Assembly: GCA_965208165.1 (NCBI GenBank)
Contig: OZ242323.1
Location: 4,851,617-4,915,616 of the forward strand
Length of the DNA stretch: 64,000 nucleotides
Direction: 5' to 3'
Source of the DNA: Vicinamibacterales bacterium
GTDB lineage: Bacteria; Acidobacteriota; Vicinamibacteria; Vicinamibacterales; UBA8438
Shown piece by piece: positions 10,425 to 55,197 of this stretch; position 1 is the first letter of the stretch, and every line of letters starts with the position of its first letter. A model generated the notes under the pieces. The model had not been told where the DNA came from. It saw nothing but the letters and a program-made list of their open reading frames with translations, and ran no database searches. The position numbers and the translations under genes were made by a program.

Positions 10425-10552
10425 AGGGCGCCCAGCGGAGCCGAAGGCGACGCTTGGCGGGCCAGGAATCTGCGCCGTAGAACGGTGCAGACTCCTAACA
10501 GGGTCGGTTGGGCGCCCAGCGGAGCCGAAGGCGACGATGGGCGGGCTAGGTG
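10425..10552. repeat. REP/MITE-like repeat cluster A (about 1.7 units)
   Basis: GGCGCCCAGCGGAGCCGAAGGCGACG..TGGCGGGCCAGGAATCTGCGCC-GTAGAAC-GGTGCAGACTCCT...GGTTGGGCGCCCAGCGGAGCCGAAGGCGACGATGGGCGGGCTAGG. Same family as the copies at 14338, 25905, 28815, 30400, 31190, 47201 and 55081. Confidence 0.85.
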
Positions 10553-11043
10553 AGCCGGGCCATGCACACGACGTCGTCGGCCCGTCCGTCGAGGAGGCGC
10601 GCCCGCCGCTTGACCCCCTCGCGCACGAAGCCCGCCCCCTCGAACAGGCGGATCGCCCGCGTGTTCGACGCGAACACCTCCAGCTCGACCCGCGTCATGC
10701 CGACCGCCCCTGCCGCCTCCAGCGCGCGGGCGAGAAGCCCCGCGCCCACCCCCCGCGCCCGCCACTCGGGCAGAAGTCCGATGCCGAGGACGCCGCCGTG
10801 CCGGAACCCCTCGAAGGCGTGGCGCTGCACGTCGCACCAGCCGACCACCCGCCCCTCGGACCGCACCACGAGCTGCACGCCGCCGCCGCGCGCCAGGCCG
10901 TCGACGAACGCCCGGGTCCCGTCGGCCCCGAAGCCGTCCACCGCGGCCAGGTAGCGCCGCTCGCGCGCCACCGCCCCGACCGCGGCCCGCAGCCCCTCGA
11001 CGTCGTCGGGCGTGATGGGCTCGATGCTGAACGGTGCGGTCAT
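10546..11043 (-). CDS. GNAT family N-acetyltransferase
   Basis: 165 aa. Acetyl-CoA-binding-type motif RARGVGAGLLARALEAA and VELEVFASNTRAIRLFEGAGFVREG. The stop codon (CTA on the plus strand, 10546-10548) lies in the terminal GGGCGGGCTAG of repeat cluster A. Confidence 0.85.
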   Translation of the reverse strand: MTAPFSIEPITPDDVEGLRAAVGAVARERRYLAAVDGFGADGTRAFVDGLARGGGVQLVVRSEGRVVGWCDVQRHAFEGFRHGGVLGIGLLPEWRARGVGAGLLARALEAAGAVGMTRVELEVFASNTRAIRLFEGAGFVREGVKRRARLLDGRADDVVCMARLT

Positions 11044-11159
11044 GCGACGTCTCCCGCGGCCGCCGAGGCCCGATTATGAGCGTCGCCACCGCCCAGGCGA
11101 CGCGCGCCCTCCCCGCGCTATTCGAACTCATGGTCCTCCGGTGTGCGGCTCGAACCCCG

Positions 11160-11543
11160 TTACCGCTTGAACGCCCGTATCGTCTCTCGCGCCCAACGAC
11201 GGCCCTCCTGGAAGTCGCGCTCCTCCATCCGCGGCCGGTCGCGAAACACGATCCGGGACACTCGCTTCTTCGTGCCGGCGGGAGACCGTTCGTAGCCGAT
11301 GACCCAACGGAAGATGCTGCCGACATCGACGGCGGCGACGTCACTCTCGGAGATCGCCGCCAAGGGGATGACCGCCTCTTCATCTTCATGCGACGAGCCG
11401 GCGGTCAGGTCGACCAGCCGCGCCACGAGCTCATCGCCACTCATCTCCACGACGTAACCCTCCCACTCCTGTAGAACCTGCAGCGTCGCCCTCCTCTCGG
11501 GCTCGGATCGCGGTGGACTGGAGTTCATGGCCCCACCGAACAC
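11160..11543 (-). CDS. Hypothetical protein (127 aa), tightly coupled to the upstream SprT-like gene
   Basis: ORF with non-degenerate, charged composition and more A/T-ending codons than its neighbours. The start is 1 nt downstream of the SprT-like stop. I recognise no family. Confidence 0.5.
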   Translation of the reverse strand: MFGGAMNSSPPRSEPERRATLQVLQEWEGYVVEMSGDELVARLVDLTAGSSHEDEEAVIPLAAISESDVAAVDVGSIFRWVIGYERSPAGTKKRVSRIVFRDRPRMEERDFQEGRRWARETIRAFKR

Positions 11544-11544
11544 C

Positions 11545-12354
11545 TCACGACGCGGAGGGAGGACGCGTGACGGCCGACGGCGGAGCCGCCCCGCCGGTGT
11601 TCAGTCGCCAGGCGATCTCCCCGCCGCACTTCCGGCACCGCGCACCGTGCCGCAGCCGGCGGCTCAGGCGCTGGCGCCGCCACTGCTTCCCGCAGCCGCA
11701 CTCGCCCAGCCAGCGGGCCGGGGTGTGGTCGACGTCGTGGCAGCGCTCGGCGGTGCAGCCGATGGCCCGGGCCACCGCCTTCCAGACGTCGTCGTGATGG
11801 TGCCGGTGGCCGACGATCGCGTGGGCGATCTCGTGCAGCAGGGTGTCCTCGATGTCGGCCCGGGTCGCCCGCAGACAGTAGCTCACCGACAGATCGATGC
11901 GCTTGTCGGCGTAGCGGCAGACGCCGGCGCGGGCCGTTGACAGGTCGAAGCCGAAGCCCCAGTCCGCGTCCAGCCCGCTCGCGGCCCGGTGACGGGCGAG
12001 GAGGTCGCCGGCCAGCGTCTCGACCTCGGCCAGCGTGCACTCCCGCTCGGGCGCCCGTTCGACCACGGTGAGGAGAGTGTAGGGCACCTTCCACAGGGCG
12101 TCGTCGCCGGCCGCCACCACGGCGCGGGCGCGCTGCAGCTCGGCGACGGCGCCCTCGATCGCCTGGCCGCGCCACCGGAACCGCACGCGGCTGCCGACGG
12201 GACAGGCGGCGCCGGGGAAGTCGGCGGTGATGGCGCCGGGCTGACGCGGCAGGGACGCCGGACGCGGCGGGGACGCCGGACGCGGCGGGGACGCCGGACG
12301 CGGCGGCGGAAAGAGCGGCAACTGGAACCCTGAACGCATCGGAGGTACCGGCAC
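11545..12354 (-). CDS. SprT-like zinc metalloprotease domain protein
   Basis: HExxH motif in LLHEIAHAIVGHRHHHDDVW, followed by a Cys-rich zinc-ribbon-like tail (GECGCGKQW...ARCRKCGGEI). The N-terminus carries PRPASP x3, encoded by a 21-bp tandem repeat at about 12245-12305. Confidence 0.8.
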   Translation of the reverse strand: MPVPPMRSGFQLPLFPPPRPASPPRPASPPRPASLPRQPGAITADFPGAACPVGSRVRFRWRGQAIEGAVAELQRARAVVAAGDDALWKVPYTLLTVVERAPERECTLAEVETLAGDLLARHRAASGLDADWGFGFDLSTARAGVCRYADKRIDLSVSYCLRATRADIEDTLLHEIAHAIVGHRHHHDDVWKAVARAIGCTAERCHDVDHTPARWLGECGCGKQWRRQRLSRRLRHGARCRKCGGEIAWRLNTGGAAPPSAVTRPPSAS

Positions 12355-12358
12355 CGGG

Positions 12359-14281: not shown

Positions 14282-14337
14282 AACGCACCGCCCCGGCTGC
14301 TAGAATAGGGGACTCCGTACCGGCAGCCGGAAGTGCG

Positions 14338-14500
14338 CGCCGTGGACGGCGCAGACTCCTGGCGGGTTGGTTGGGCGGCAATCGGAGCCGCAGGCGACGA
14401 TTTCCGGGCCAGGAGTCTGCGCCGTAGAACGGTGCAGACTCCTGGCAGGGTTGGTTGGGCGCCCAGCGGAGCCGAAGGCGACGATGGGCGGGCTAGGAGT
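14338..14500. repeat. REP/MITE-like repeat cluster B (2 units; reference copy)
   Basis: Unit 14348-14423 (76 bp) has perfect 16-bp terminal inverted repeats: GGCGCAGACTCCTGGC at 14348-14363 and GCCAGGAGTCTGCGCC at 14408-14423. Then comes the junction GTAGAAC, and a second unit ending GGGCGGGCTAGGAGTGCC. Confidence 0.9.
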
Positions 14501-14509
14501 GCCACTGTG

Positions 14510-18012: not shown

Positions 18013-18020
18013 CAAACATC

Positions 18021-24784: not shown

Positions 24785-26038
24785 GTGGCTTCTCCCGTGC
24801 GCCGCATCCTCCACCTCGACATGGATGCGTTCTACGCGTCGGTGGAGCAGCGCGACGATCCGTCGCTGCGCGGCCGGCCGGTGGCCGTCGGCGGCCGGCC
24901 CGACCGGCGCGGGGTGGTCGCCGCCGCCAGCTACGAGGCCCGGAAGTTCGGGGTGCGCTCGGCGATGTCGATGGCGCGGGCGGTGCGCCGGTGCCCGGAG
25001 CTGGTCGTGGTACCGCCCGACTTCGCCCGCTACCGGTCCGTCTCGGACCGCATCTTCGACATGTACCGCTCGGTCACCCCCCTCGTCGAGCCCCTCTCGC
25101 TCGACGAGGCGTACCTCGACGTGACGAGCAACAGTTGGAACGAGCCGCTCGCCACGACCGTGGCCCGGCGGCTGAAACAGTGGATCCGCGCCGAGACGGC
25201 GCTGACCGTCTCGGCCGGGGCCGCGCCCAACAAGTTCCTCGCGAAGATCGCCTCCGACTGGGACAAGCCCGACGGCCTGACCGTCATCCCCGTCGAGCGG
25301 GTCGACGCCTTCCTGCGGCGGCTCCCCGTCGACGCGCTCTGGGGGGTCGGCCCCGTCACCGCGAAGCGGCTCCGGGCCGCGGGGGTGGTGAAGCTCGTCG
25401 ACGTGCGCACCGCGGACCCCCGCGTGCTCCGGCGCGCCGTCGGCAGCCGCATCGACTGGCTGCGCCGGCTCGCCGAGGGCAAGGACGACCGTCCCGTCAG
25501 CCCCGACCGCGTCGTCAAGTCGTCGGGCTCGGAGCACACCTACCCGACCGACCTCACCGACCCGGACGAGATCCGGCGCGAGCTCGACGGGCTGGCGCGG
25601 CGCGGGGCGGCGTGGCTCGAACGCAAGGGACTCGCGGCCCGCACCGTCACCATCAAGGTGCGCTACGCCGACTTCACCACCGTCACCCGCAGCCACAGCG
25701 CGGATCCCGCCACCCGCGACGCCGGGCAGATCGTCCTGCGGGCACGACGGCTGCTGGACCGGACCGAGGCCTGCACGCGGCCCGTCCGCCTGCTCGGGGT
25801 GACCATGCACAACCTGTCGGCGGAGGAAGACGCCCCGCCCGGCCCCGGGCATCCGACCCTGCCGCTCTCCGAGGCGTTACCGCCGGCCAGGCGTCAGCGC
25901 CCGGGGACGGCGCAGACTCCTGGCCCGCCGGTCGAGGGCCGGGCGGAGCCGCGGGGCGACGATTGGCGGGCCGGGCTCGGCGTTTCCCCCCGAAAAACGG
26001 GCCCCGATGGCAAGCACTCGGAGCCCGAGCCAAGGTAA
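24785..26038 (+). CDS. dinB: DNA polymerase IV (Y-family), with C-terminal tail running through a repeat copy
   Basis: ILHLDMDAFYASVEQRDDPSLRGRPVAVGG, SLDEAYLDVT, AKIASDWDKPDGL, LPVDALWGVGPVTAKRL. GTG start. The last ~55 codons have no DinB-like character and include repeat copy C. Confidence 0.9.
   Translation: MASPVRRILHLDMDAFYASVEQRDDPSLRGRPVAVGGRPDRRGVVAAASYEARKFGVRSAMSMARAVRRCPELVVVPPDFARYRSVSDRIFDMYRSVTPLVEPLSLDEAYLDVTSNSWNEPLATTVARRLKQWIRAETALTVSAGAAPNKFLAKIASDWDKPDGLTVIPVERVDAFLRRLPVDALWGVGPVTAKRLRAAGVVKLVDVRTADPRVLRRAVGSRIDWLRRLAEGKDDRPVSPDRVVKSSGSEHTYPTDLTDPDEIRRELDGLARRGAAWLERKGLAARTVTIKVRYADFTTVTRSHSADPATRDAGQIVLRARRLLDRTEACTRPVRLLGVTMHNLSAEEDAPPGPGHPTLPLSEALPPARRQRPGTAQTPGPPVEGRAEPRGDDWRAGLGVSPRKTGPDGKHSEPEPR
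25905..25975. repeat. REP/MITE-like repeat copy C (diverged), inside the dinB 3' tail
   Basis: GGACGGCGCAGACTCCTGGCCCGCC...GGGCGGAGCCGCGGGGCGACGATTGGCGGGCC matches the family consensus. Confidence 0.7.
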
Positions 26039-28814: not shown

Positions 28815-28863
28815 CATGTCACGTTGGAAAGGGCAACCCCGCAGGCGACGACTGGCGGGCTAG
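28815..28863. repeat. REP/MITE-like repeat half-copy D
   Basis: ...GCAACCCCGCAGGCGACGACTGGCGGGCTAGCG. The terminal CTAG supplies the stop of the minus-strand 28860-29273 gene. Confidence 0.6.
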
Positions 28864-29613: not shown

Positions 29614-30411
29614 ATGCGTCTCACCGTGCTCACGACGTTCACCGCGGCGCTGCTGACCGCCGCCGCCCCCGCCGCCGCGCAATCGTCGGACCGCTTCCCG
29701 GCCGAGGGCGGCGACGTCGTCGTCACCCCCATCCTCCACTCGAGCGTGCAGATCGAGCACGCCGGCACGGTGGTGCACATCGACCCCTGGACGGCCGGCG
29801 ACCTGACGGACGCCAAGCCCGCCGACCTGATTCTCGTGACCGACGACCCGGCCCACCACCTCGACCCGGCCGCCATCGAGCAGCTCCGCAAGCCCGGGGC
29901 CCCGGTCGTGCTGACCGCGACCGCCCACGCCCGTTTCGGCGACGGCGTGGTGCTCGCGAACGGCGAGCAGGGGGTGTTCGCCGGCGTGCCGGTGGAGGCG
30001 GTCCCCGCCTACGACATGACGCCCGGCCAGCCGTGGCACCCGAAGGGCGAGGCGAACGGCTACGTCGTCACCCTGGGAGGAAAGCGGCTCTTCTTCTCGG
30101 GCGTGGGCGAGTGCGTCCCCGAGATACAGGCGCTCGAAGACATCGACGTGGCGTTCATGCCGATGAACCTGCCCGTCGACCGCATGCGCCCGATCCCGGT
30201 GGCGGAGTGCGTGAAGACCTTCGGGCCGCCGGTCGTCTACCTCATCCACTACGACAACGCGACCGCGCGCTGGTTCGGCGATCCCGAGCAGCCCCGCCCC
30301 GACAACGCGATGGAGATCGCGGCCACGATCCAGGCCCTGCGGGACGCCCTCGGGGGAGAGCCGATCGAGGTGCGCGACGGCGACTGGTATCCGGCCCGGA
30401 CGGCGCGGTAG
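29614..30411 (+). CDS. MBL-fold metallo-hydrolase (secreted)
   Basis: Trimmed from the 29254 ORF to ATG at 29614. Signal peptide MRLTVLTTFTAALLTAAAPAAAQ. DLILVTDDPAHHLD (degenerate HxHxDH region), FMPMNLP, VVYLIHYD. Confidence 0.8.
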   Translation: MRLTVLTTFTAALLTAAAPAAAQSSDRFPAEGGDVVVTPILHSSVQIEHAGTVVHIDPWTAGDLTDAKPADLILVTDDPAHHLDPAAIEQLRKPGAPVVLTATAHARFGDGVVLANGEQGVFAGVPVEAVPAYDMTPGQPWHPKGEANGYVVTLGGKRLFFSGVGECVPEIQALEDIDVAFMPMNLPVDRMRPIPVAECVKTFGPPVVYLIHYDNATARWFGDPEQPRPDNAMEIAATIQALRDALGGEPIEVRDGDWYPARTAR

Positions 30412-30576
30412 CGGCGCGGCTCCGCGAACGGCGCGGATTCGTGGAAGGTCGGTTGGGCGGCCAGCGGAGCCGAAGGCGACGGTTGGCGCGGCGGGAGTCT
30501 GCGCCGCGGAACGGCGCGGATTCCTGGAGGGTCGGTGGGCGCCGAGGGGAGCCGAAGGCGGCGGTTGGCGGGCTAG
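30400..30576. repeat. REP/MITE-like repeat cluster E (2 units) filling a convergent intergenic gap
   Basis: GAACGGCGCGGATTCGTGGAAGGTCGGTTGGGCGGCCAGCGGAGCCGAAGGCGACGGTTGGCGCGGCGGGAGTCTGCGCC-GCGGAAC-GGCGCGGATTCCTGGAGGGTCGGTGGGCGCCGAGGGGAGCCGAAGGCGGCGGTTGGCGGGCTAG. The flanking genes stop at 30409-30411 (TAG) and 30573-30575 (CTA). Confidence 0.85.
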
Positions 30577-31189: not shown

Positions 31190-31430
31190 GCCCCCCGTTG
31201 CCGCCGACTCTCCTGTCCCGCCAATCGTCGCCGGGCGACCTTGCGGTCGCCTCGGGAGTCTCGCTGACGCGGAATCCCAGCGCCCCGAGGACGGCCGCGC
31301 AACCGACCCTCCACGAGTCCGCGCCCTCGGCGCCGACTTCCTGCTCGCCCACCGTCGCCTGACGGCTCTGCCGGGGGCCCAACCCACGCTCCAGGGGCTC
31401 GCGGCGTTCTACGACGCAGACTCCTGGCCG
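31190..31430. repeat. REP/MITE-like repeat cluster F (about 2.5 units, reverse orientation)
   Basis: CCCGCCAATCGTCGCC..., ...GCGCAACCGACCCTCCACGAGTCCGCGCC..., GGCGCCGACTTCCTGCTCGCCCACCGTCGCCTGACGGCTCTGCC...CCCAACCCACGCTCCAGGGGCTCGCGGCGTTCTAC-GACGCAGACTCCTGGCC. These are reverse complements of the family consensus. Confidence 0.8.
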
Positions 31431-32488
31431 CGCCGCCGCGCGAGCTCGCCCCGCGCCCACTCGACGTGCTCCTCCACCAGCGGGTCGCGAACCGAGTCGG
31501 CGTCGGTCCGGGTCTCGTACCGTTCCGGGGCCAGCGCGGCGCGGGCGCCGGCGGCGCCGCTGTTGCCCATCGCCACCGCCACGTTCCGGCGCAGCCGCTT
31601 CACCCGGGCCCGGGTCATCGGTCCCTTGCGGATGGCGTCCCGCAACCGGGCGTCCGACCGGCGCCACAGCTCGACCAGGGAGGGCCGGTCCAGGGCGGGC
31701 CGGGGCTGCCACGCCGGGTCGTCGCTGACCGGCGCCGCCGCGTTGTAGGGGCAGACCTCCTGGCAGATGTCGCACCCGTAGACGTGCGCCCCCAGGTCGG
31801 CGCGCTGCCCCGAAGGAATGGCCCCCTTCGTCTCGATCGTCAGGTAGGACAGGCAGCGGGTGGAGTCGAGCACCCCCGGCTCGGGGAAGGCGCCGGTGGG
31901 GCACGCTTCGAGACACAGCGTGCAGGCGCCGCACTGGTCGAAGGCCGGCGGGTCGGGCTCGAGGGCGACGCTGCAAAGCACCTCGGACAGGAACAGCCAC
32001 GACCCGACGTCCGGGTTGATGAGGCAGGTGTTCTTGCCGATCCACCCGAGGCCGGCGTACTGCGCGTACACGCGCTCCTGCACGGGCCCGGTGTCGACGT
32101 AGACGCGCGTCTCGCAGGGCCCGCCGTGCGCCTCGCGCATCCACGCGCCGAGAGCCCGGGTGCGCTCGCCGACGACGTCGTGATAGTCGTCGCCCCACGC
32201 GTAGCGCGAGATCAGCGCCGTGCCGGGGTCGCCGATCTCGGTCGAGCAGGGCCGGTCGGTGTTGTAGAGGGTTCCCAGGGCCACGACCGTGCGCGCCGTC
32301 GGCATCACCGCACGGACATCGGCGCGGCGGTCGGCGGTGCGCGCCATGTACGCCATGTCGCCGGCGTAGCCCCGGTCGAGCCAGCCGCGCAGCGCGGCCA
32401 GCTCGGGAAACGCGGCGGCCGGGGCGACCCCGCACAGATCGAAGCCGAGGTCACGGGCCTTCGCCTTGACGGCGTCCGACGTCAGCAT
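31409..32488 (-). CDS. queG: Epoxyqueuosine reductase
   Basis: 359 aa. MLTSDAVKAKARDLGFDLCGVAPA..., GYAGDMAYM, two 4Fe-4S motifs CGACTLCLEACPTGAF and CDICQEVCPYN, and a HEAT-like C-terminus. Confidence 0.9.
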   Translation of the reverse strand: MLTSDAVKAKARDLGFDLCGVAPAAAFPELAALRGWLDRGYAGDMAYMARTADRRADVRAVMPTARTVVALGTLYNTDRPCSTEIGDPGTALISRYAWGDDYHDVVGERTRALGAWMREAHGGPCETRVYVDTGPVQERVYAQYAGLGWIGKNTCLINPDVGSWLFLSEVLCSVALEPDPPAFDQCGACTLCLEACPTGAFPEPGVLDSTRCLSYLTIETKGAIPSGQRADLGAHVYGCDICQEVCPYNAAAPVSDDPAWQPRPALDRPSLVELWRRSDARLRDAIRKGPMTRARVKRLRRNVAVAMGNSGAAGARAALAPERYETRTDADSVRDPLVEEHVEWARGELARRRGQESAS

Positions 32489-32504: not shown

Positions 32505-32812
32505 GAATCGCCGAACGCGGCTCGGATGGCCGCCCAGCCAACCCGTCGGCGATCCCCGCCATCACCCGCCGCCTCCGCGGGAGCCGGCGACTCCGGGGAG
32601 CCAACGCCACGGCGGAATCGGATGGCCGCCCAGCCAACCCGTCGGCAAACCCCGCCGTCACCCGCCGCCTCCGCGGGAGCCGGCGACTCCGGGGAGCCAA
32701 CGCCACGGCGGAATCGGATGACCGCCCAGCCAACCCGTCGGCAAACCCCGCCGTCACCCGCCGCCTCCGCGGGAGCCGGCGACTCCGGGAGCCAACGCCA
32801 CGGCGGAGTCGG
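32505..32812. repeat. Tandem array, 96-bp period x about 3, diverged subfamily of the REP-like element
   Basis: GGATGGCCGCCCAGCCAACCCGTCGGC recurs at 32524, 32620 and 32716. The unit contains CGCCCAGCCAACCC, the reverse complement of the family core GGGTTGGyTGGGCG. It lies between divergent queG and the NHL-repeat gene. Confidence 0.9.
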
Positions 32813-32913: not shown

Positions 32914-34065
32914 ATGCCACAACGACTGCTTGCGAGCCTGCCGATGCTCGCCCTGCCCCTCCTCGCGTGCGAGCGGCCCGAGGCCCCCGAGGCGGCCGCC
33001 GACGCCGCCGCGACCCCCGGGGAGCCCGCCGCCGCCCTCGCGTTCGAGGTCGACCCCTACTGGCCGCGGCCGCTCCCCGACGACTGGCTGCTCGGCAACG
33101 TCGTGGGCGTGGCCACCGACTCGCGGGACAACGTGTGGATCATCCACCGGCCGAACAGTCAGCGCGGGGCCGAGGCGACCCCGCCGGTCATCGCCTTCGA
33201 CCCCGAGGGCAACGTGGTCCACGGCTGGGGCGGGCCCGGCGACGGCTATGCATGGGGCACGCAGACCCACGGCATCCACGTCGACCACGGGGACAACGTG
33301 TGGGTCGGCTTCGGCGGCGGGCTCCCCTACGACCTGTCGAGCCGGGCCACCACCGACAACGCCCACGTGCTCAAGTTCACCCCGGACGGCGACTTCCTCC
33401 TGCAGATCGGCGAGTTCGGCAACGGCACCGCGGGCAGCGGCAGCACGGAGTTCCTCGGTCAGCCGACGGACATCTTCGTCGACCCCGAGACCGACGAGGT
33501 CTACGTCAGCGACGGCTACACCAACCGGCGGGTCATCGTCTTCGACGCCGACACCGGCGAGTACCGGCGTCACTGGGGCGGCTACGGCGACCCGCCCGAC
33601 GACGCGCCCCAGCCGGCGTTCACGCGGGACGGGCCGCTGCCGCGGCAGTTCAACACGCCGCACTGCGTCGGGCGGTCGGCCGACGGCAACGTCTATGTCT
33701 GCGACCGCGGCAACCAGCGCCTGCAGGTGTTCGAGCCTGACGGCACGTTCGCGACCGAGGCGCTGATCGCCGCCCCCCTTCGGGACGGCGCCGTCGGCGG
33801 GACGCCCTGGGACCTCGCCTTCTCGCGCGACGCCGACCAGCGGCTCGTGTACGTCGCCGACGGCGGGGCCCACGCCGTCCACGTGCTGCGCCGCGACACC
33901 CTGGAGGTGGCGGCGACGTTCGGACGCCGCGGGCGGTGGGCCGGCCAGTTCGAGTCGCCGCACAGCCTCGCCGTCGACTCGCGGGGCAACCTGTTCGTGG
34001 GCGAAACGCTTGACGGGCGCCGCGTCCAGAAGTTCGTGCCGGCCGAGACGGAGCCTGCGCCGTAG
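32914..34065 (+). CDS. NHL-repeat six-bladed beta-propeller protein (peptidylglycine lyase-like), secreted
   Basis: Signal-like LLASLPMLALPLLAC. Repeated blades (VATDSRDNVWIIHR, IFVDPETDEVYVSDGYTNRRVIVFD, VGRSADGNVYVCDRGNQRLQVFEPDG, LAVDSRGNLFVGETLDGRRVQKF). Confidence 0.8.
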   Translation: MPQRLLASLPMLALPLLACERPEAPEAAADAAATPGEPAAALAFEVDPYWPRPLPDDWLLGNVVGVATDSRDNVWIIHRPNSQRGAEATPPVIAFDPEGNVVHGWGGPGDGYAWGTQTHGIHVDHGDNVWVGFGGGLPYDLSSRATTDNAHVLKFTPDGDFLLQIGEFGNGTAGSGSTEFLGQPTDIFVDPETDEVYVSDGYTNRRVIVFDADTGEYRRHWGGYGDPPDDAPQPAFTRDGPLPRQFNTPHCVGRSADGNVYVCDRGNQRLQVFEPDGTFATEALIAAPLRDGAVGGTPWDLAFSRDADQRLVYVADGGAHAVHVLRRDTLEVAATFGRRGRWAGQFESPHSLAVDSRGNLFVGETLDGRRVQKFVPAETEPAP

Positions 34066-34138
34066 CGAGGCGGAGCCTGCGCCGTAGCGAGGCGGAGCCT
34101 GCGCCGTAGCGAGGCGGAGCCTGCGCCGTAGAACGGCG
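34051..34138. repeat. 22-bp tandem repeat x4, each copy carrying TAG
   Basis: GAGCCTGCGCCGTAGCGAGGCG starts at 34051, 34073, 34095 and 34117. The first TAG (34063-34065) is the stop of the NHL gene. The last copy ends GCGCCGTAGAACGGCGCC, which is the REP-family junction motif. Confidence 0.9.
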
Positions 34139-34430
34139 CCGCCCGCGCCCGGCAAGCCCCGGGATCCTCGGCAAGGCTCAACCTCTCGCTGCAAGGGACC
34201 CGCCCGGGGGTGCACGACATCATTGTTGGATGGCGGCCCCCCGGCGCCGTCGGGCTCTCGATTCACGGGGACGGCTGGGCCATGGACCCTCGCGGCAGGT
34301 CAATCCAAGGGCTGCCGCGCCCGCACACGAGGTGATGCCCGTCTTGCGTGGCGGCGCACGACTTTCCTGTCGTGCACCCCCCGCCCGGCTGGAACTTGCG
34401 CCAGCGGTGCAGTAGCATTCACGGGAATCC

Positions 34431-36295: not shown

Positions 36296-36324
36296 CCACG
36301 GTCGTGACGCCGGAGAGGGTAACG

Positions 36325-38715
36325 ATGACAGGCAGCGCGGTACGGATCATCGGCATCGCCGGCCTCGCCCTGGCGGCGGCCGTCGCCGCGGCCGGGGCAC
36401 AGCCCCCCGCGGGCGCCCTCTCCGAGGCGGCCCCACGGCCGGCCGGCGGCACCGCCGAGGCCGTCTCCGCCCGCGCGGTCCTGGATCGCTACTGCGTCGC
36501 CTGCCACAACGCCCGCACCCTCACCGCCGGCCTCGCCCTCGACGACGTCGACCCCGCGCACGTCGCGGAGGATGCCGCGGTCTGGGAGAAGGTGCTGCGG
36601 AAGCTGCGCACCGCGACGATGCCGCCGTCCCCACGGCCGCGCCCCGACGCCGCGACCTACGCCTCGCTCGTCGACTACCTGGAGACCGCCCTCGACCGCT
36701 CGGCCGGGGCGGCTCCCGACCCCGGCCGCCCCGCGGTGCAGCGGCTGAACCGGGCCGAGTACGCCAACGCCGTCCGCGACCTGCTGGCCCTCGAGGTCGA
36801 CGCCCAGACCCTGCTGCCGGCCGACGAGTCGGGGTACGGCTTCGACAACATCGGCGACGTCCTCACCGTCTCGCCGGGGTTGCTCGAGCGCTACCTGCTG
36901 GCCGCCGCGAAGATCAGCCGGCAGGCTGTCGGGGACCCGACGCTGCGCCCCACCACCGCTCTCTACCGGACATCGCCGCTGCTCGCCCAGGACGGGCGTT
37001 CGAGCGAGGACCTGCCGTTCGGGTCGCGGGGCGGGCTCGCGGTGCGCCACCACTTCCCCCTCGACGCCGAGTACGTCATCCGGGTCGCCCTGCGGGGCCG
37101 GGCGCGGGCCGGGCACGCGCTGGAGGTCCGGCTCGACCGCGAGCGGGTCGGGCGCTTCGACCTCGGCGAGCGGGCGCCGCTCGAGGTGCGCGTCCCCGTC
37201 GCGGCCGGCACGCGGCTGCTCGGGGTCTCGTTCGTCGAGGCGCTGGAGCGGTCGCTGCCCCTCGACGGGCGCCCGCCGCCGCCCCCCATCACGAGCTTCG
37301 CGTTCACTCTCTACCCGAACCATCCGTCGGTGGAGCGCGTCGAGATCGTCGGGCCGTACGCGGGAAGGACCCCGGCCGACACCCCGAGCCGGCGCGCCAT
37401 CTTCACCTGCCGTCCGGAGGCGCCGGCGGACGAGACCGCGTGCGCGGGGCGCATCGTCGAGCGGCTCGCGCGACGCGCGTACCGTCGCCCTGTGACCGAT
37501 GCCGACACCGCCCCCCTGCTCGCCGCCTACGAGGCGGGGCGGCAGGAGGGCGGCGGCTTCGAGGACGGCGTCCGGTGGGCGATCGAGGCGCTGCTCGTCT
37601 CGCCGAAATTCCTGTTCCGGGTCGAGGAGACCCCGCCGGCGACCGTGCCCGGCGCCCCCTACCGCGTCGGCGACCTCGACCTCGCCTCGCGGCTCTCGTT
37701 CTTCCTCTGGAGCAGCATTCCCGACGACGAGCTCGTCGACCTCGCGGCGGACGGCCGGCTGCGCGAGCCGGGCGTCCTCGAGGAGCAGGTCCGCCGCATG
37801 CTCGACGATCCGCGCGCGGGGGCGCTGGTCGAGAACTTCGCGGGGCAGTGGCTCTATCTGCGCAACCTGCCCAGCGTCGCCCCCGACACGGTCCGGTTCC
37901 CCGACTTCGACGACAACCTGCGCCACGCGCTCCGCCAGGAGACCGAGCTGTTCATGGCGAGCCAGATCCGCGAGGACCGCGGCGTGCTCGACCTCCTGCG
38001 CGCCGACTACACCTTCATCAACGAGCGGCTGGCCCGGCACTACGGCATCCCCGGCGTCTACGGCAGCCACTTCCGGCGCGTGGCGTACCGCGACGACCGC
38101 CGCGCCGGCCTCCTGGGGCACGGCAGCCTGCTCACGGTGACCTCCTATCCTCACCGCACGTCCCCGGTGCTGCGCGGGAAGTGGCTGCTCGAGAACCTGC
38201 TGGGGGCCCCGCCGCCCCCGCCGCCCCCGGACATCCCCGAGCTCGACGAGCCCGGCGGCCGGGCGGCGCCGGCGACGATGCGCGAGCGCATGGCGCAGCA
38301 CCGGGCGAGCCCCGCCTGCGCGACGTGCCACGCCAAGATCGACCCGCTGGGGTTCGCGCTCGAGAACTTCGACGCGGTGGGGCGGTGGCGCACGCGCGAG
38401 GACGGCGCGGGCACGCCGATCGACGCCTCCGGCGCGCTCCCGGACGGCGCCCCCTTCGACGGCCCCGCCGCGTTCCGCGAGGCGCTGCTGCGCGAGCCCT
38501 GGGCCACCGAGTTCGCGACCACGGTCACCGAGAAGCTGATGACCTATGCCCTCGGCCGGGGGCTCGAGCACTACGACGCCCCGGCCGTGCGCCGCATCCT
38601 GCGCCACGCCGGACCCGGCGGCCACCGCTGGTCGTCGCTCGTTCAGGGCATCGTCGAGAGCGCCCCGTTTCAGATGCGGCGCGCGCCGGAAGCCGGCAAC
38701 GCCCGCGCGCAGTAG
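36325..38715 (+). CDS. DUF1592/DUF1588/DUF1587/DUF1585/DUF1595 multi-domain protein with N-terminal cytochrome-c-like CxxCH
   Basis: Trimmed to ATG at 36325 (GGAGAGGG upstream), because the 5' part of the ORF reads through the tandem repeat. Signal peptide IIGIAGLALAAAVAAAGAQ. CVACHN heme-binding-type motif. Further motifs: NRAEYANAVRDLL, FAGQWLYLRNL, LTVTSYPHRTSPVLRGKW, CATCHAKIDPLGFALENFDAVGRWR. Confidence 0.9.
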   Translation: MTGSAVRIIGIAGLALAAAVAAAGAQPPAGALSEAAPRPAGGTAEAVSARAVLDRYCVACHNARTLTAGLALDDVDPAHVAEDAAVWEKVLRKLRTATMPPSPRPRPDAATYASLVDYLETALDRSAGAAPDPGRPAVQRLNRAEYANAVRDLLALEVDAQTLLPADESGYGFDNIGDVLTVSPGLLERYLLAAAKISRQAVGDPTLRPTTALYRTSPLLAQDGRSSEDLPFGSRGGLAVRHHFPLDAEYVIRVALRGRARAGHALEVRLDRERVGRFDLGERAPLEVRVPVAAGTRLLGVSFVEALERSLPLDGRPPPPPITSFAFTLYPNHPSVERVEIVGPYAGRTPADTPSRRAIFTCRPEAPADETACAGRIVERLARRAYRRPVTDADTAPLLAAYEAGRQEGGGFEDGVRWAIEALLVSPKFLFRVEETPPATVPGAPYRVGDLDLASRLSFFLWSSIPDDELVDLAADGRLREPGVLEEQVRRMLDDPRAGALVENFAGQWLYLRNLPSVAPDTVRFPDFDDNLRHALRQETELFMASQIREDRGVLDLLRADYTFINERLARHYGIPGVYGSHFRRVAYRDDRRAGLLGHGSLLTVTSYPHRTSPVLRGKWLLENLLGAPPPPPPPDIPELDEPGGRAAPATMRERMAQHRASPACATCHAKIDPLGFALENFDAVGRWRTREDGAGTPIDASGALPDGAPFDGPAAFREALLREPWATEFATTVTEKLMTYALGRGLEHYDAPAVRRILRHAGPGGHRWSSLVQGIVESAPFQMRRAPEAGNARAQ

Positions 38716-38742
38716 AGCGGTAGAACCCGGGAGCCTGGACCC

Positions 38743-44324: not shown

Positions 44325-44439
44325 GAAACTGAGTAATTATACTCTTTAATCTGAGTAAAATAAGTGCTTGCGGGGCGGCCCGGCGTCGTTCGCACGGCGT
44401 CGAGGAGGCGGGGCTCGAACACGCGGGGACCGGCGGCCG

Positions 44440-45588: not shown

Positions 45589-45855
45589 GGCGTGGCCCGG
45601 AAAGCGTCGCCGGTCGGCTCGGCCGCCGCCCCGGCCTCCAGCCGTCCGCACCGTTCCACGGCGCAGAGGCCTCGGCGGTCGTCGGCGTCGAGGCAGCTGG
45701 CGACGTCGCCTCGCCGATGTCGCCGAGGCGCAGGCCGTGATTCCCTTGCGGAAACGCCGGGGACACGACAAGGTACCGTCGTCAGAGCCCTGATCCGAGT
45801 ATAGACAGGCCGCTTGACCCCCACAAGGGCGGGCCGGTCGAGAGAGGAGGCGTCG

Positions 45856-47205
45856 ATGAACATGCCCGCGGGAAGGCTCATTCACCGGGGACGCGGCTCG
45901 CGGTACTTCTGCGCGGTGTTGGCGGGGCTGATGCTGCTCGGCGCGGGCACGGCGGCCCCGGCCCCGGCGGCCCCGCCGACGGGGGCCTCGCCTGCGGCCG
46001 CCCCGCCCCCGGCGGGGAGCCAGGAGACCGAGTCGGCCCTCGTCGCACGGGCGCGCGCCATCCACGACCGGGTGCTGACCATCGACACCCACGACGACAT
46101 TCCCCTCGACTTCGCGACCGCGACCACCGACCCCGGGGTGCGCGGGGAGCGTCAGGTCGACCTGCCCAAGATGGAGGAGGGCGGCCTCGACGCCGGCTTC
46201 TTCGTCGTCTACGTCGGGCAGACCGAGCGAACGCCCGAGAACGAGGCGCAGGCCAAGGCCGACGCGATGACCAAGTTCGAGGCCATCCGCCGCATGGCCG
46301 AGCAGATGTACCCGGACCGCATCGCCATCGCCTACACCGCCGACGACTTCGAGCGCATCGCCGGCAGCGGCAGGTCCATCGCGGCCATCGGCATCGAGAA
46401 CGGCTACGTCATCGGGCGCGACCTCTCGCTCATGCAGACCTACTACGACCTCGGCGCCCGCTACTTCGGCCTCGTCCACAACGGGCACAACGACATCGCC
46501 GACTCGGCCAACCCGCGGCCGAACCTAGGCGACGCCCCGGCCGAACACGGCGGCCTCAGCGCCTTCGGGGCCGAGGTCGTCGCCGAGGCGAACCGGCTGG
46601 GCATGATGCTCGACGTCTCGCACGCCTCGAGGGCGGCGATGCTCGACACCGTGCGGCTGTCGCGGGCGCCGGTCATCGCCTCGCACTCCAGCGTCCGGAC
46701 CCTCGCCGACAATCCGCGCAACCTCGACGACGAGCAGCTCCTGGCCCTGCGCGACAACGGCGGGGTCATGCACACCGTCGCCCTCGGCGCCTTCGTCAGC
46801 AGCGCGGCGGCGGCCCGCGGCGACGCCATCCGGACGCTACGGGCGGACATCGGGCTGCCGCGGTTCGGCCCGGCGGACCCGGCCGGCCTCGACGAGGCGG
46901 CCCGCGGCGAGTACGACCGCCGCATGGCCGAGATCGACGGGCGATGGCCGGCCGCCGACGTCGCCACGTTCGTCGACCACATCGACTACGCGGTCGAGCT
47001 GATCGGCCTCGACCACGTCGGCATCAGCTCCGACTTCGACGGCGGCGGCGGCGTCGTGGGGTGGAACCACGCCGGCGAGACCTTCAACGTCACCCTCGAG
47101 CTGGTGCGGCGCGGCTACACCGAGGCCGAGATCGCGCAGCTCTGGGGCGGCAACCTGCTGCGGGTGCTGCGCGAGGTCGAGCGGGTGGCGGCGGCCAGCC
47201 GCTAG
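45856..47205 (+). CDS. Membrane dipeptidase (peptidase M19 family), secreted
   Basis: ATG at 45856 after GAGAGGAGG. Signal-like FCAVLAGLMLLGAGTA. LTIDTHDDIPLDF, IGIENGY, LVHNGHNDIADS, MLDVSHAS, VIASHSS, GISSDFDGGGG. Confidence 0.9.
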   Translation: MNMPAGRLIHRGRGSRYFCAVLAGLMLLGAGTAAPAPAAPPTGASPAAAPPPAGSQETESALVARARAIHDRVLTIDTHDDIPLDFATATTDPGVRGERQVDLPKMEEGGLDAGFFVVYVGQTERTPENEAQAKADAMTKFEAIRRMAEQMYPDRIAIAYTADDFERIAGSGRSIAAIGIENGYVIGRDLSLMQTYYDLGARYFGLVHNGHNDIADSANPRPNLGDAPAEHGGLSAFGAEVVAEANRLGMMLDVSHASRAAMLDTVRLSRAPVIASHSSVRTLADNPRNLDDEQLLALRDNGGVMHTVALGAFVSSAAAARGDAIRTLRADIGLPRFGPADPAGLDEAARGEYDRRMAEIDGRWPAADVATFVDHIDYAVELIGLDHVGISSDFDGGGGVVGWNHAGETFNVTLELVRRGYTEAEIAQLWGGNLLRVLREVERVAAASR

Positions 47206-47395
47206 CCGCAATCGTCGCCAGCGGTTCCGCTTGGCCCCCTGCCGACTCGCCAGGAGTCGGCGCCGTTCCACGGCACGGACTCCTGGCCCGCTGCAGCGTC
47301 GAGGGCAGGCCCTGCGCGGCGACAGAGGTTCCGAGTCAAAACGACGGGCGCCAGGACGCTGCATCGTCGAGGGCAGGCCGGACGCCGGCGACCGA
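47201..47395. repeat. REP/MITE-like repeat cluster J (about 2 units, reverse orientation)
   Basis: GCTAGCCGCAATCGTCGCCAGCGGTTCCGCTTGGCCCCCTGCCGACTCGCCAGGAGTCGGCGCC-GTTCCAC-GGCACGGACTCCTGGCC... The terminal CTAG contains the dipeptidase stop TAG (47203-47205). Confidence 0.8.
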
Positions 47396-49962: not shown

Positions 49963-49980
49963 CTTCGTCGACTGAATGCA

Positions 49981-50637
49981 GTGATTCGCTTTACGCTTGT
50001 GGCTGACGGCTCGTCGGATCGGGCGCTTCTTCCGGTCCTCGTATGGCTGTTGCGGGAGCACTTCGGGAACATTCCCATTCAGCCGGCGTTCTCAGACCTG
50101 CGTCGTCTTCGGAATCCACCCGGGCAGCTCTTTGAACGCATCGCCAAGGGTGTCGAGCTGTATCCTTGCGACCTGCTCTTCGTGCACCGCGACGCCGAAC
50201 GTGAAACGATGGACAAGCGTGAGGAGCAAATTCGCGAGTCCCTGGAAAGGTGCGCAATCGACGCGACGCTGCCGGTTGTTTGCGTGATTCCGGTGCGGAT
50301 GCAGGAAGCGTGGTTGCTCATCGACGAATCCACATTGAGGAGGGCCGCGGGGAATCCTCTGGGTCGTCGGCCACTGCCCGTACCTGACCCGAAGAGACTC
50401 GAAGACCTGCCGGACCCCAAACAGACCCTCCATGAACTTCTGCGCCAAGCGAGCGACCTTCACGGCAGACGGTTGGCGCGCTTCAACCGTGATGTGAGGC
50501 GCCACGTGCATCGCCTGGCCGAGCAGATCGAGGACTTCCGTCCGCTGCGGGGATTGTCGGCGTTCCAGAGGTTGGAACACGAAGTGGTCGCCGTTCGCCA
50601 GAGCGGCATTCTCCCCGCACTTGACAGTGTTCGCTAG
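49981..50637 (+). CDS. DUF4276 / Toprim-like small protein (candidate nuclease partner of the ATPase)
   Basis: GTG start 18 nt after the ATPase stop. 218 aa. N-terminal strand plus acidic pair (IRFTLVADGSSDRALLPVL), central acidic cluster (LLFVHRDAERE), and VVCVIPVRMQEAWLLIDE. This layout is what I recall for DUF4276 and OLD-type Toprim domains. The family assignment is from memory, not from a search. Confidence 0.65.
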   Translation: MIRFTLVADGSSDRALLPVLVWLLREHFGNIPIQPAFSDLRRLRNPPGQLFERIAKGVELYPCDLLFVHRDAERETMDKREEQIRESLERCAIDATLPVVCVIPVRMQEAWLLIDESTLRRAAGNPLGRRPLPVPDPKRLEDLPDPKQTLHELLRQASDLHGRRLARFNRDVRRHVHRLAEQIEDFRPLRGLSAFQRLEHEVVAVRQSGILPALDSVR

Positions 50638-51053
50638 GCATTGGTGTTGAGCCTCTGTGCTCTGCCGGGTCCTGTCGTCGGTCCTGTACCGCAGGTGGCG
50701 TCCGCCCGCGAGCCGGCCGCCGGCGCCGTCGGCCGGCAGCACGGGCAGGCGGGTGTGCATATGGAGGTTCTCGTCGCCGATGCAATCGCCATGGAGCAGC
50801 GTCGGGTGATCGAGCGGGGTGCGATCGCCGTAAGCGGGGACTGCGGCGGCCCCACGCTCGCGGCGGGGTTCCCGGCGGCCGGGTGCAGACCGATTGGAGG
50901 AAGCCGAGGCCGGTCGACCTCAGTTCCGGCCTGCCGCCCCTTCGCTCGGAGTCGGAGAGGACACCAGCGGCGTCAGATGGCGTTGGCGACGGCGACCCGG
51001 CCTGGCTCGCCCCCCTGACCAACCCCGGTCTTCGCCTCGTACGACACGTTTTT

Positions 51054-51091
51054 TGTAGACACGCTACTTTATATAGCGTAGCCTATCTACA
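51054..51091. promoter_or_regulatory. AT-rich palindromic operator/promoter abutting the padR start
   Basis: TGTAGACACGCTACTTTATATAGCGTAGCCTATCTAC-ATG. Inverted repeat ACGCTA (51061-51066) N7 TAGCGT (51074-51079) around TTTATATA. Outer GTAGAC/ATCTAC half-sites. No Shine-Dalgarno before the ATG at 51091. Confidence 0.5.
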
Positions 51092-51453
51092 TGACGACAG
51101 CTCCCGCGAGCAACCGGATCGAGCTGCTCTACGGCACCCTCGACCTGCTCATCCTGCGGACGCTCCTGTACGGGCCCTCGCACGGCCACGCCGTCGCCAA
51201 GCACATCCAGCGGGTCTCGGAGAACGCCCTGCAGATCGAGACGGGCTCGCTCTACCCTGCCCTGCACAAGCTGGAGAGGCGCGGCTGGATCGCGGCCGAG
51301 TGGAAGAAGTCGGACAAGGGCAAGCGCGCTCGCTACTACCACGTCACGCCGCTTGGCCGCGAGCATCTCACGGCGCAGCAGTCGCGCTGGGAGGCGCTGT
51401 CGGTGGCCATGGCGCGGGTGCTGCGGCCGGCCGAGCAGGAGTCGGGGCCGTAG
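51091..51453 (+). CDS. PadR family transcriptional regulator
   Basis: 120 aa. LYGTLDLLILRTLLYGPSHGHAVAKHIQ...GSLYPALHKLERRGWIAAEW...RARYYHVTPLGREHL is the PadR wHTH signature. Confidence 0.9.
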   Translation: MTTAPASNRIELLYGTLDLLILRTLLYGPSHGHAVAKHIQRVSENALQIETGSLYPALHKLERRGWIAAEWKKSDKGKRARYYHVTPLGREHLTAQQSRWEALSVAMARVLRPAEQESGP

Positions 51454-54283: not shown

Positions 54284-54296
54284 CCACCCGTGACGG

Positions 54297-55058
54297 TCAG
54301 CGCGGCCGGCGCCCCACGAACATCTCGTGCCGGCCCGGCTCCACGCCGGAGACCACGAGCGGCTCGCATCGGGGCTCGAACCCGACTTCGGTCAGGAGGT
54401 CCAGCCAGCGGTCGCGCGCGAACAGGCCCTCGACGTGCCGCTCGTGCACGCAGCGGACCGACCCGTCGCGCTCGCGCAGCAGGAACGCGAAGTCGGCGAG
54501 GTACTCCGTATCGCCCGGATCGGGATCCCAGACCCACTCCAGGTAGCGCAGCCCGCGCGCGCACCCCCCGCCGGCTCCGGAAGGCGGCCGCTCGTCGCAA
54601 CCGCCAGCGGACGCCCCGGCCCGGAAGTTCTCGCGCACGTAGTCCGGCTGGAACAGCACGGCGCCGCCGGGACGGCAGTGCGCCCACGCCGTCTCCATGG
54701 CGCGCCGCAGGTCGGCCTCGGTCGTCATGTAGCAGACGGCGTCGTGGACGAAGACGGCGTCGAAGCTCCGGCCCAGGCGGAGCGTGCGCATGTCGCCGAC
54801 CCGGTGCTCGCACTCGGGGTTGAGGGCGCGGCTGACCGCGAGCATCTCGGGCGACAGGTCGGTGAGCAGCAGGCGGGGGAAGCGCCGCTTCAGGTGCAAG
54901 GCGGTGTTCCCGCCGCCGCAGCCCAGCTCAAGCAGGGACTCGATCGGGCCGTCGCACGCCTCCTGCAACCGGTCGGCGTAGACGACGGCCTCCTCGGCGT
55001 AGTCCGCCTGGTCGTCGACGAGCGGCCACCACTCTGCGAGTTCGCTGTAGAGACGCAT
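54297..55058 (-). CDS. Class I SAM-dependent methyltransferase
   Basis: 253 aa. Motif I LLELGCGGGNTALHL, acidic post-I LLLTDLSPEM, FDAVFVHDAVCYM. Confidence 0.85.
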   Translation of the reverse strand: MRLYSELAEWWPLVDDQADYAEEAVVYADRLQEACDGPIESLLELGCGGGNTALHLKRRFPRLLLTDLSPEMLAVSRALNPECEHRVGDMRTLRLGRSFDAVFVHDAVCYMTTEADLRRAMETAWAHCRPGGAVLFQPDYVRENFRAGASAGGCDERPPSGAGGGCARGLRYLEWVWDPDPGDTEYLADFAFLLRERDGSVRCVHERHVEGLFARDRWLDLLTEVGFEPRCEPLVVSGVEPGRHEMFVGRRPR

Positions 55059-55080
55059 CGATCTGCCCGTTGACGACGGC

Positions 55081-55197
55081 CGCGCGGACTCGCCGATCCC
55101 GAGTCGTGTCGGGTGGATTCACACCGGCGCCAGCCCGCCCATCGTTGCCTTCGGCTCCGCTGGGCGCCCAACCAACCCTCCAGGAGTCCGCGCCCTT
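55081..55197. repeat. REP/MITE-like repeat copy K (reverse orientation)
   Basis: CCAGCCCGCCCATCGTTGCCTTCGGCTCCGCTGGGCGCCCAACCAACCCTCCAGGAGTCCGCGCC is the reverse complement of the family consensus. Confidence 0.85.

Follow-up and report, generated by a model that had tools for sequence, protein, structure and literature searches.

A REP/BIME-like family of 84-nt, TAG-bounded hairpin pairs in Vicinamibacterales, probably copied by an enzyme acting in trans

The BIME-2 elements (bacterial interspersed mosaic elements) of Escherichia coli are composed of alternating Y and Z2 repetitive extragenic palindromes (REPs). In REPs of the GTAG type, the tag lies 0-2 nt from the foot of a short or 'long' bulged hairpin (PMC6006769; PMC3733652). 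Published traits of this type include G.T pairs, location downstream of open reading frames (ORFs), termini that provide TAG stops, inverted dimers and partner REP-associated tyrosine transposases (RAYTs) (PMC3733652, PMC6006769). In Acidobacteria and Planctomycetes, class-3 TnpA(Y1) 'REPtron-like' systems have been described, with ~600 hairpins in Solibacter usitatus (Quentin et al. 2018, PMC6006769). Here we analyse a family of short palindromic repeats in a 64-kb stretch of contig OZ242323.1 (positions 4,851,617 to 4,915,616) from a soil-dwelling Vicinamibacterales bacterium of the Acidobacteriota. This whole stretch, hereafter the window, has a G+C content of 72%, and an earlier note made from its letters had described the family as REP/BIME-like or MITE-like (miniature inverted-repeat transposable element). 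We find that it probably comprises REP/BIME-like, non-autonomous repeats of Vicinamibacterales that are copied by an enzyme acting in trans. REP/BIME repeats have long been known from E. coli and Pseudomonas, and the family is a variant of these rather than an element of a new kind.

The family is real. Its arm motif occurs 18 times in the window with up to three mismatches, against 3.05 expected, a count reached in 0 of 100 shuffles, and its units are recovered both by nhmmer and by a covariance model (CM). The two 16-nt arms reported earlier, GGCGCAGACTCCTGGC at 14348-14363 and GCCAGGAGTCTGCGCC at 14408-14423, are perfect reverse complements, and the quoted core and GTAGAAC junctions are present at 10.4k, 14.3k and 30.4k. 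The 76-bp unit that the earlier note built from them, a core between two terminal inverted repeats (TIRs), is out of register. Single copies, which make up 67 of the 84 clusters outside the window, read arm'-GTAGAAC-arm-core-CTAG in other genomes and lack the right-hand arm. Therefore, the supposed TIRs are both arms of a tight hairpin, hairpin 1, spanning a tandem junction. The natural unit, seen in ~75 full copies from ~13 Vicinamibacterales species, is 84 nt long and has (C/G)TAG at both ends. It consists, in order, of TAG, hairpin 1 (13-17 bp), a G-rich linker, the bulged hairpin 2 and CTAG, and reads 5'-TAG / GAGTCTGCGCC-GTAGAAC-GGYGCAGACTC / CTRGC-AGGGTTGGTTGG / GCGCCCAGCG-GAGCCGAAGGCGA-CGATGGGCGG / GC-TAG-3', where the invariant 13-nt GAGCCGAAGGCGA is the loop of hairpin 2.

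This register bears on the MITE-like reading, in which a 76-bp element with 16-bp TIRs would be moved by a DDE transposase (e.g. IS5/IS630 type, CTAG or TA target) and leave a target-site duplication. Such an element would account for the perfect 16-bp inverted arms at 14348-14423. Duplication of a CTAG/TAG target over 3-4 bp could have left the (C)TAG at either end, and the related contig L002 carries a DUF772 (IS5/IS1182-type) transposase gene. However, single copies lack the right-hand arm in many genomes, and the real ends of the 84-nt unit (GAGTCTGCGCC... and ...GATGGGCGGGC, TAG...CTAG in single copies) do not form an inverted repeat. Neither the window nor the loci yielded an insertion sequence (IS) with matching ends. 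We regard a classical MITE as very improbable.

Each half of the unit resembles a REP. On the top strand, hairpin 1 is an xTAG followed at 0 nt by the foot of a 33-nt hairpin with a stem of 13-17 bp and a loop of 3-7 nt; on the bottom strand, hairpin 2 reads CTAG-CC plus a bulged hairpin of ~35 nt, its tag 2 nt from the foot. Both are GC-rich stem-loops within the ~20-40 nt of GTAG REPs. They are separated by a linker of ~15 nt, both tags face outward, and the tag mostly begins with C, less often with G. Since each hairpin is an xTAG plus a GC-rich hairpin and the two lie on opposite strands, a unit amounts to two different REPs paired in inverted orientation.

Units also occur in arrays of two or three, and neighbours in loci L018, L097 and L099 have one CTAG in common. 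Because this palindromic CTAG belongs to both adjoining units, the arrays have an exact period of 84 nt (28 codons), as reported by the tandem-repeat program TRF, and all TAGs of one unit fall in a single reading frame. Sub-modules bounded by TAG have been duplicated on their own: L099 has a core-only module between two units, and at 34044-34131 the TAG-bounded 22-nt left arm + GTAG is repeated four times, with three fewer copies in strain L001. Two further observations concern the units themselves. An extra small palindrome (GCCTCCrGAGGAGGC) is nested in the right arm of hairpin 1 in some units (L047:6640-6700, L116:1100-1190), possibly a smaller second repeat with the first as its target. 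Within the window arrays, CTAGG/CCTAG has become CCAGG/CCTGG (e.g. 10460-10465, 14407-14412, 14442-14447), with CTAG kept in other species, a change which we take to be the pattern expected of Dcm/Vsr-type very-short-patch repair.

A scan of species-representative genomes with the 18-mer GCGGAGCCGAAGGCGACG gave matches above all in metagenome-assembled genomes (MAGs) of Vicinamibacterales/Vicinamibacteria (Acidobacteriota), ~13 species in total, and the 8-kb loci around these matches hold >100 units (nhmmer). The unit at 14411-14494 is identical at 84/84 positions to units of OZ220718.1, and three further species have units that match it at 83/84. Between the window and OZ220718.1, orthologous protein-coding genes have only 71-73% DNA identity, and therefore a master sequence is either held constant or re-amplified. 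Locus L001, a 1.83-Mb ENA contig, represents a 99%-identical strain with units at the same places as in the window. Even at this distance units vary by indels, and substitutions are denser inside units than in their flanks. The earlier note had raised the possibility of an assembly artefact; this is discarded because the same family, with unique flanks, is present in many independent long-read MAG chromosomes and in L001. Extrapolated from 11 units/64 kb, a genome of 6.5-7 Mb would carry several hundred or more units.

Relatives of the family reach beyond Vicinamibacterales, to a Pseudomonadales MAG (E 2e-8) and a Spirochaetia MAG (CBDBOG01, E 3e-6). In both, the stem of hairpin 2 has a different sequence and still pairs. 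The Pseudomonadales MAG has two copies, both of which supply stop codons, with GTAG as the bottom-strand tag (L028), and an Azotimanducaceae MAG has the 18-nt hairpin-2 core with different yet complementary stems. Collections of plasmids and phage contigs contained no family member. A metagenome scan with the AlgH-like protein encoded in the window returned relatives of at most 84% identity, none accompanied by the family. Rfam gave 0 matches at gathering score in the window and, in E-value mode, only weak generic hairpin (miRNA) models, and a literature search by sequence string found no paper with the family sequence. The consensus thus seems to be undescribed, as the earlier note had supposed. 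Three other identities were considered and rejected: a CRISPR-like array (the 'spacers' are invariant), an integron attC site (the loop is unlike the attC R' consensus) and a tRNA- or tmRNA-derived element (no ARAGORN match).

On the top strand, the fold comprises hairpin 1 (17 bp, AGA triloop) and hairpin 2 (6 + 2 + 3 bp, bulged), at -53.1 kcal/mol (z -6.3) when computed as RNA and -29.3 kcal/mol as DNA; the bottom strand gives a weaker fold, at -41.3 kcal/mol. Because RNAalifold alone did not recover hairpin 1, we set the structure manually and tested it by counting pairs in 64 copies (58 distinct); these counts refer to sequences and not to independent events. In these copies, 92.3% of paired cells are complementary, against 31-41% when partners are slid by 1-3 columns. 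Cells changed on both sides number 55, against 24.9 in shuffles, and 0 of 500 shuffles reached as high a value. Covariation is clearest at pair 62:86, with C-G in 26 copies, A-U in 18 and G-C in 4. Hairpin 2 has entire alternative stems (CCCAG/ATGGG, CCAAG/ATTGG, GGTGAG/CTCTCC, GGCAAT/ATTTCC). Compensatory changes maintain both stems. G.U pairs outnumber A.C pairs by 90 to 38 in hairpin 1 and by 20 to 13 in hairpin 2; the excess in hairpin 1 points to selection on this hairpin to fold on the top strand. Neither hairpin is followed by a T-tail on either strand, and a terminator scan left the units unflagged; therefore, they are not canonical intrinsic terminators. A terminator or mRNA-stabiliser role, as suggested by the earlier note, is a putative one.

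Copies in the window were delineated with covariance model R1 (filters off, E<1e-4), with nhmmer, repeat finding and TRF as further detectors. The features are as follows.

10426..10459, + strand: hairpin-2 module only (partial unit), left part of a two-unit array; CM R1 positions 48-81, E 2e-4; nhmmer positions 46-83
10462..10549, + strand: full 84-nt unit with flanking CCAG/CTAG; CM 98.7 bits, E 5e-17
14327..14408, + strand: unit 1 of a two-unit array, with hairpin-2 stem variant GGCAAT/ATTTCC; CM E 8e-11
14409..14496, + strand: unit 2 of the array, identical to the master (84/84), upstream of an NMT1-like gene; CM 113 bits; 100% identity to L018, L006 and L052
25887..25974, + strand: decayed unit, boundary TAGs gone, inside the C-terminal extension of dinB; CM E 7.5e-8
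28839..28863, + strand: 25-nt fragment, 3' half of hairpin 2 + CTAG; nhmmer E 0.034
30414..30490, + strand: 5'-truncated unit, strain L001 being 39 bases longer here; CM E 2e-6; alignment
30491..30576, + strand: full unit; CM E 2e-12
31206..31325, - strand: badly decayed unit with an internal insertion; nhmmer E 0.002; CM only E 0.39 at 31286-31338
31340..31427, - strand: unit with the hairpin-1 loop GTAG as a gene stop; CM E 2e-11
32522..32812, no strand assigned: 96-nt x 3 tandem array, doubtful member; nhmmer E 0.0016; CM E 0.1-0.6; TRF
34044..34153, + strand: four tandem copies of the 22-nt hairpin-1 left arm + GTAG, then a decayed right arm; TRF period 22, 4.0 copies
38713..38740, + strand: remnant TAG AGCG GTAGAAC CCGGGAGCCTGG, after the stop of a PSD-domain gene; alignment
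45592..45674, - strand: decayed unit in a divergent intergenic region; CM E 4.8e-5; nhmmer E 1e-4
47202..47286, - strand: reverse-orientation unit; CM E 4.8e-12
55130..55207, - strand: unit without most of the hairpin-1 left arm, between two minus-strand genes; CM E 4.8e-12

The window thus holds 11 units at 8 loci at the CM threshold, plus remnants; the locus at 10426-10549 amounts to 1.5 units. The earlier note had counted at least 10 loci and about 15 or more units, a figure that included what proved to be a fragment (28839-28863), a decayed unit (31206-31325) and an array of arms (34044-34131). It had also listed 32505-32812 as a tandem derivative, where similarity is only marginal: a short stretch of the 32522-32812 array is like the linker and the start of hairpin 2, and its copy number is unlike that in L001. 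Nor does the family shape nearly every longer intergenic region, since ~8-9 of roughly 28 gaps of at least 150 nt hold a member. The statement that all copies lie at gene boundaries stands for most of them, which are at gene 3' ends, and fails for 25887-25974. There, the ORF of the DNA polymerase IV gene dinB (24797..26038, +, 413 aa), whose homology to E. coli DinB stops near residue 340, reads through a decayed unit that has lost all its TAGs, gaining ~70 extra codons. At the orthologous site of the 38713..38740 remnant, L083 has a full unit (alignment). The window is rich in tandem repeats overall, and those at 5604-5773, 12243-12306, 36073-36308, 60523-60630, 61391-61595 and 62123-62196, with periods of 58, 18, 93, 51, 75 and 24 nt, respectively, are unrelated to the family.

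Unit boundaries coincide with stop codons. Eight gene ends of the window are involved, namely, those of the GNAT, DUF1761, MBL-fold, AlgH-like, QueG-like, NHL-repeat, PSD-domain and M19 dipeptidase genes. The TAG at 30409-30411, just left of the truncated unit, is the stop of the MBL-fold gene (29614..30411), the TAG at 34063-34065 that of the NHL-repeat gene, and the TAG at 47203-47205 that of the M19 dipeptidase gene (45856..47205, +). On the opposite strand, the CTA at 10546-10548 provides the TAG stop of the GNAT gene (10546..11043, -), and those at 28860-28862 and 30573-30575 are the stop codons of the DUF1761 (-) and AlgH-like (-) genes. In the QueG-like gene (31409..32488), the stop is the loop GTAG (31409-31411, - strand) and the arm encodes the protein tail ..QESAS*. 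For the AlgH-like gene, orthologues from 80 metagenome loci, which have no family member, all share the terminal residue (...VH*), their stop codon being TGA, TAA or TAG; in the window the unit begins exactly at this common stop position. Since the end residue is unchanged with or without a unit, units occupy the stop codon and leave the protein unaltered. In the closest AlgH relative (84% aa; L122:3040-3262, metagenome contig Ga0114993_10022036), a different palindromic tandem repeat of ~115 nt (CTTAGACGGGGCTTCGCCCCG...) directly follows the same stop; it is unlike the window unit, and therefore different lineages put different repeat families at this position.

The same association holds in the other genomes. 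Of 83 clusters with predicted genes on both sides, read in the orientation of the unit, 41 lie between same-sense genes, 17 between convergent, 15 between two antisense and 10 between divergent genes. A gene end is present on at least one side of 73 clusters, and 33 unit ends provide a gene with its stop. The upstream gene terminates at the left boundary TAG in 16 clusters and at the in-frame loop GTAG in five (with tails such as ..QESAP*); in 12, an opposite-strand gene terminates at the right CTA. Boundary TAGs that are not stops have mostly decayed to CCAG, CTGG, CCGG or CGAG. Among genes whose ends lie within 25 nt of a unit, TAG is the stop in 51 and TGA in 7, versus 102 and 175 for the other genes of the same loci (odds ratio 12.5, Fisher p 4e-13). 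TAG is an unusually frequent stop for a 72% G+C genome, with 22 TAG, 24 TGA and 2 TAA in the window and 153, 182 and 3 in Vicinamibacterales loci L004-L119, and it still accounts for 37% of loci stops when unit-adjoining genes are left out. Several TAG stops without a detected unit are followed by TAGCCCG..., which could be decayed unit ends.

A stronger proposal is that the doublet is a portable stop codon and 3'-end cassette which inserts specifically at TAG stops and whose activity helped to create the unusually high TAG usage (~45% of stops) of these 72% G+C genomes. Its mover would be an enzyme, possibly a non-canonical RAYT, that recognises the invariant 13-nt hairpin-2 loop, a loop common to Acidobacteriota, Gammaproteobacteria and Spirochaetota. 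If true, hundreds of genes would gain an in-frame back-up stop and a ribosome-stalling hairpin. We consider this proposal speculative and rather unlikely.

The main alternative to mobile repeats is a functional structured RNA module of the 3' end, i.e., a stop followed by two stabilising or terminating hairpins, whose sequence would be conserved for this function and would have spread by recombination or gene conversion, with no dedicated transposase. Several results agree with it: G.U wobbles favour one strand (110 versus 51), the hairpins are extremely stable as RNA, and the hairpin-2 loop is invariant even across phyla. Among clusters in unidirectional contexts, the top strand has the sense of the upstream gene in 41 and is antisense to it in 15, and orientation goes with gene strand and not with GC skew. 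In L028, a group II intron begins ~15 nt past a unit, a location where some bacterial introns sit after terminator hairpins. However, units occur in both orientations relative to the gene that receives its stop (~21 by the left end, 12 by the right end), between divergent genes (10/83), in tandem arrays of two or three identical units and in an ORF extension. They have no T-tail and match no Rfam family, and recombination alone would hardly produce whole units that are 100% identical across genera. The sense bias (41 versus 15) is itself expected of a non-palindromic TAG target, which alone would skew orientation toward gene sense, since a stop can take an antisense insertion only if a C precedes it. 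On balance, an RNA module of this kind is an unlikely explanation.

We return to a family of REP/BIME-like, non-autonomous repeats. The earlier assignment to this class is upheld by the inverted pair of TAG-tagged hairpins, the position at gene 3' ends, the G.T wobbles and the compensatory changes. A trans-acting enzyme working on single-strand DNA would copy units and TAG-bounded sub-modules. The likeliest candidate is a RAYT-like HUH/Y1 tyrosine transposase, which would recognise the hairpins and cut at the TAG tag. New copies would land at other TAGs, which in a 72% G+C genome would mostly be stop codons. Insertion at TAG would explain why the protein is left whole and why the TAGs of a unit, all in one frame, act as back-up stops. 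An inserted unit would set a very stable hairpin (~-53 kcal/mol as RNA) right at the stop codon, where it probably affects mRNA 3'-end stability and translation termination; it would protect the 3' end of the mRNA and may stall ribosomes at termination. Such stalling is reported for E. coli REPs that lie at most 15 nt from a stop codon (cited in PMC12306157).

Several points weigh against this scenario. As the earlier note had stated, the window contains no transposase: none, and no RAYT, is present among the Pfam results of its ~50 proteins, nor in the annotation of L001. A search of ~870 kb of loci, amounting to <1% of those genomes, found no RAYT/Y1 either by phmmer with E. coli RayT against six-frame ORFs or by the HUH...Y motif. 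A single weak RayT match in phmmer is a malate synthase, and the short genes flanked by inverted units at two places encode an HIT protein and a methyltransferase, not a transposase. With no RAYT or other transposase found, the mechanism of mobilisation is one that we infer. Nor was a clean pair of filled and empty sites found at high identity; the syntenic pairs L004/L095 and L025/L056 differ by messy indels and not by a single unit. Insertion at TAG, and any target duplication, are thus likewise inferred. Further points are the first base of the tag, usually C and not G, the ability of the hairpin-1 tag to pair with a downstream CTRG, and the spacer-free head-to-tail arrays of hetero-dimers, untypical of described GTAG families. 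Finally, orientation tracks the strand of the neighbouring gene (41 versus 22) and not local GC skew (32 versus 31), although 8-kb GC skew is a noisy proxy. With no tie to GC skew, there is no sign of the lagging-strand bias of IS200/IS605-type elements.

The same evidence can be set against a palindrome-associated transposable element (PATE) of an IS200/IS605-type IS, with hairpin 1 as the left end, hairpin 2 as the right end and insertion 3' of TAG without duplication. This reading and the one we favour differ mainly in the acting Y1 enzyme. It fits the subterminal hairpins at both ends without TIRs, the short motif that stands both left of the element and at its right end, and the duplication of TAG-bounded sub-modules. 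Moreover, the class-3 Y1 transposases found in Acidobacteria are unusual and are accompanied by hairpins in the hundreds (PMC6006769). On the other hand, no tnpA or tnpB was found nearby in the loci searched, orientation is unbiased with respect to GC skew (32 versus 31 on this weak proxy), class-3 elements are described with a CnGA foot and not TAG (PMC6006769), and each hairpin alone already fits the definition of a REP, on opposite strands. We consider a PATE improbable, and REP/BIME-like repeats copied in trans remain the reading we prefer.

Some neighbouring loci deserve a record of their own. In the Pseudomonadales MAG OY761542.1 (L028:2350-4666), the group II intron starts (GTGTG...) ~15 nt past the family-related unit and lies on the strand of the upstream DUF480 gene. 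Rfam models RF02003 (D1-D4) and RF00029 (D5-D6) match it at 4400-4538 and 2350-2461, both on the minus strand. The ORF between the RNA domains encodes a DDE_Tnp_ISAZ013 transposase, not a reverse transcriptase. The arrangement suggests that the hairpins were used as a terminator-like intron target.

In the window, a low-GC island at 48000-51100 (0.64-0.68 versus 0.72-0.75 around it) contains an AAA_21/AAA_15/SMC_N ATPase gene (48469-49962) and ORFs without Pfam matches at 49981-50637 (+) and 50092-50760 (-); it may be a horizontally acquired defence-type module. Accessory modules at 18021-18688, 58398-59429 and 59960-61928 encode, respectively, a PIN-domain toxin with a short upstream ORF, likely a VapBC pair, a Fic/DOC protein, and a BlaI/BlaR1-type repressor and sensor pair. 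A second close relative of the window, L002:9948-16771 (ENA ERZ25084387 ctg32608l), diverges downstream of a spermidine-synthase-like gene, where a strain-specific island carries a YjiV_N/helicase/MZB gene, a DEAD helicase gene and the DUF772 (IS5/IS1182-type) transposase gene. Strain L001 has an 88-nt tandem duplication of ordinary intergenic sequence, downstream of an AAA_14/DUF4143 gene (L001:15620-15760), of which the window has one copy (44360-44448).

The biology of REPs, BIMEs and REPINs (REP doublets forming hairpins) comes almost wholly from Proteobacteria, whereas the family described here is a well-defined one in Vicinamibacterales, which rank with the most abundant and the least studied lineages of soil. 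Its clean traits, namely, the 28-codon period, a TAG at each module boundary and a master found across genera, make the copying enzyme, its cut site and the use of units by the host testable. In practice, units confound gene calling through C-terminal tails such as ..ESAP*, extended ORFs such as dinB and supplied stops, and they are hotspots of strain-level indels in comparisons of MAGs. If the tie to TAG stops is causal, the family bears on stop-codon usage in high-GC genomes; a conceptual surprise would arise only if the TAG-stop link or the enzyme proves unusual.

Among described elements, Correia/NEMIS and other TA-targeting MITEs resemble the family in being small, abundant and located at gene ends, with a target containing T-A at both ends. 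Those elements have true TIRs and a TA duplication, in contrast to the window family, which has no TIR at its real ends. Class-3 Y1 systems come from the same phylum and likewise comprise atypical hairpins in hundreds of copies, a number that is extrapolated for the window family. Their hairpins are described with a 5' CnGA foot and flank the Y1 gene, whereas the present family has TAG as its foot, and the window and loci searched gave no Y1 gene.

A close known system is the superfamily of GTAG-tagged REPs, which includes SMAG of Stenotrophomonas and the REPs of Pseudomonas and E. coli (Di Nocera, De Gregorio & Rocco 2013, PMC3733652). As in these REPs, a GC-rich hairpin stands at a distance of 0-2 nt from a tag that ends in TAG, stems contain G.T pairs and complementary variants, and units form inverted dimers and clusters, some of them inside ORF ends (here dinB). 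Copies of both are found mainly downstream of ORFs, in unidirectional or convergent gaps, and their termini often give a TAG stop. The differences concern the tag, which is mostly C-first and forms a palindromic CTAG common to neighbours, and which in hairpin 1 can be base-paired, whereas published GTAG tags are unpaired. The hairpin-1 stem, at 13-17 bp, is at or above the published 6-13 bp, and every dimer combines the same two unrelated hairpins. Both the host clade, Vicinamibacterales, and the sequence lie outside the 24 described families, and the RAYT partner is a predicted one.

With BIME-2 and with the REPINs of Pseudomonas, the family has in common an inverted REP pair with a short linker, head-to-tail reiteration, a dominant master among mutated copies and inheritance within a bacterial lineage. 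It differs in its exact period of 84 nt, or 28 codons, without an outer linker. The two REPs of a unit are far more dissimilar than Y and Z and are not copies of each other. Finally, REPIN sequences are usually species-specific, whereas the master of the window family is identical across genera, and, unlike in BIME-2 and REPINs, related copies are present in other phyla.

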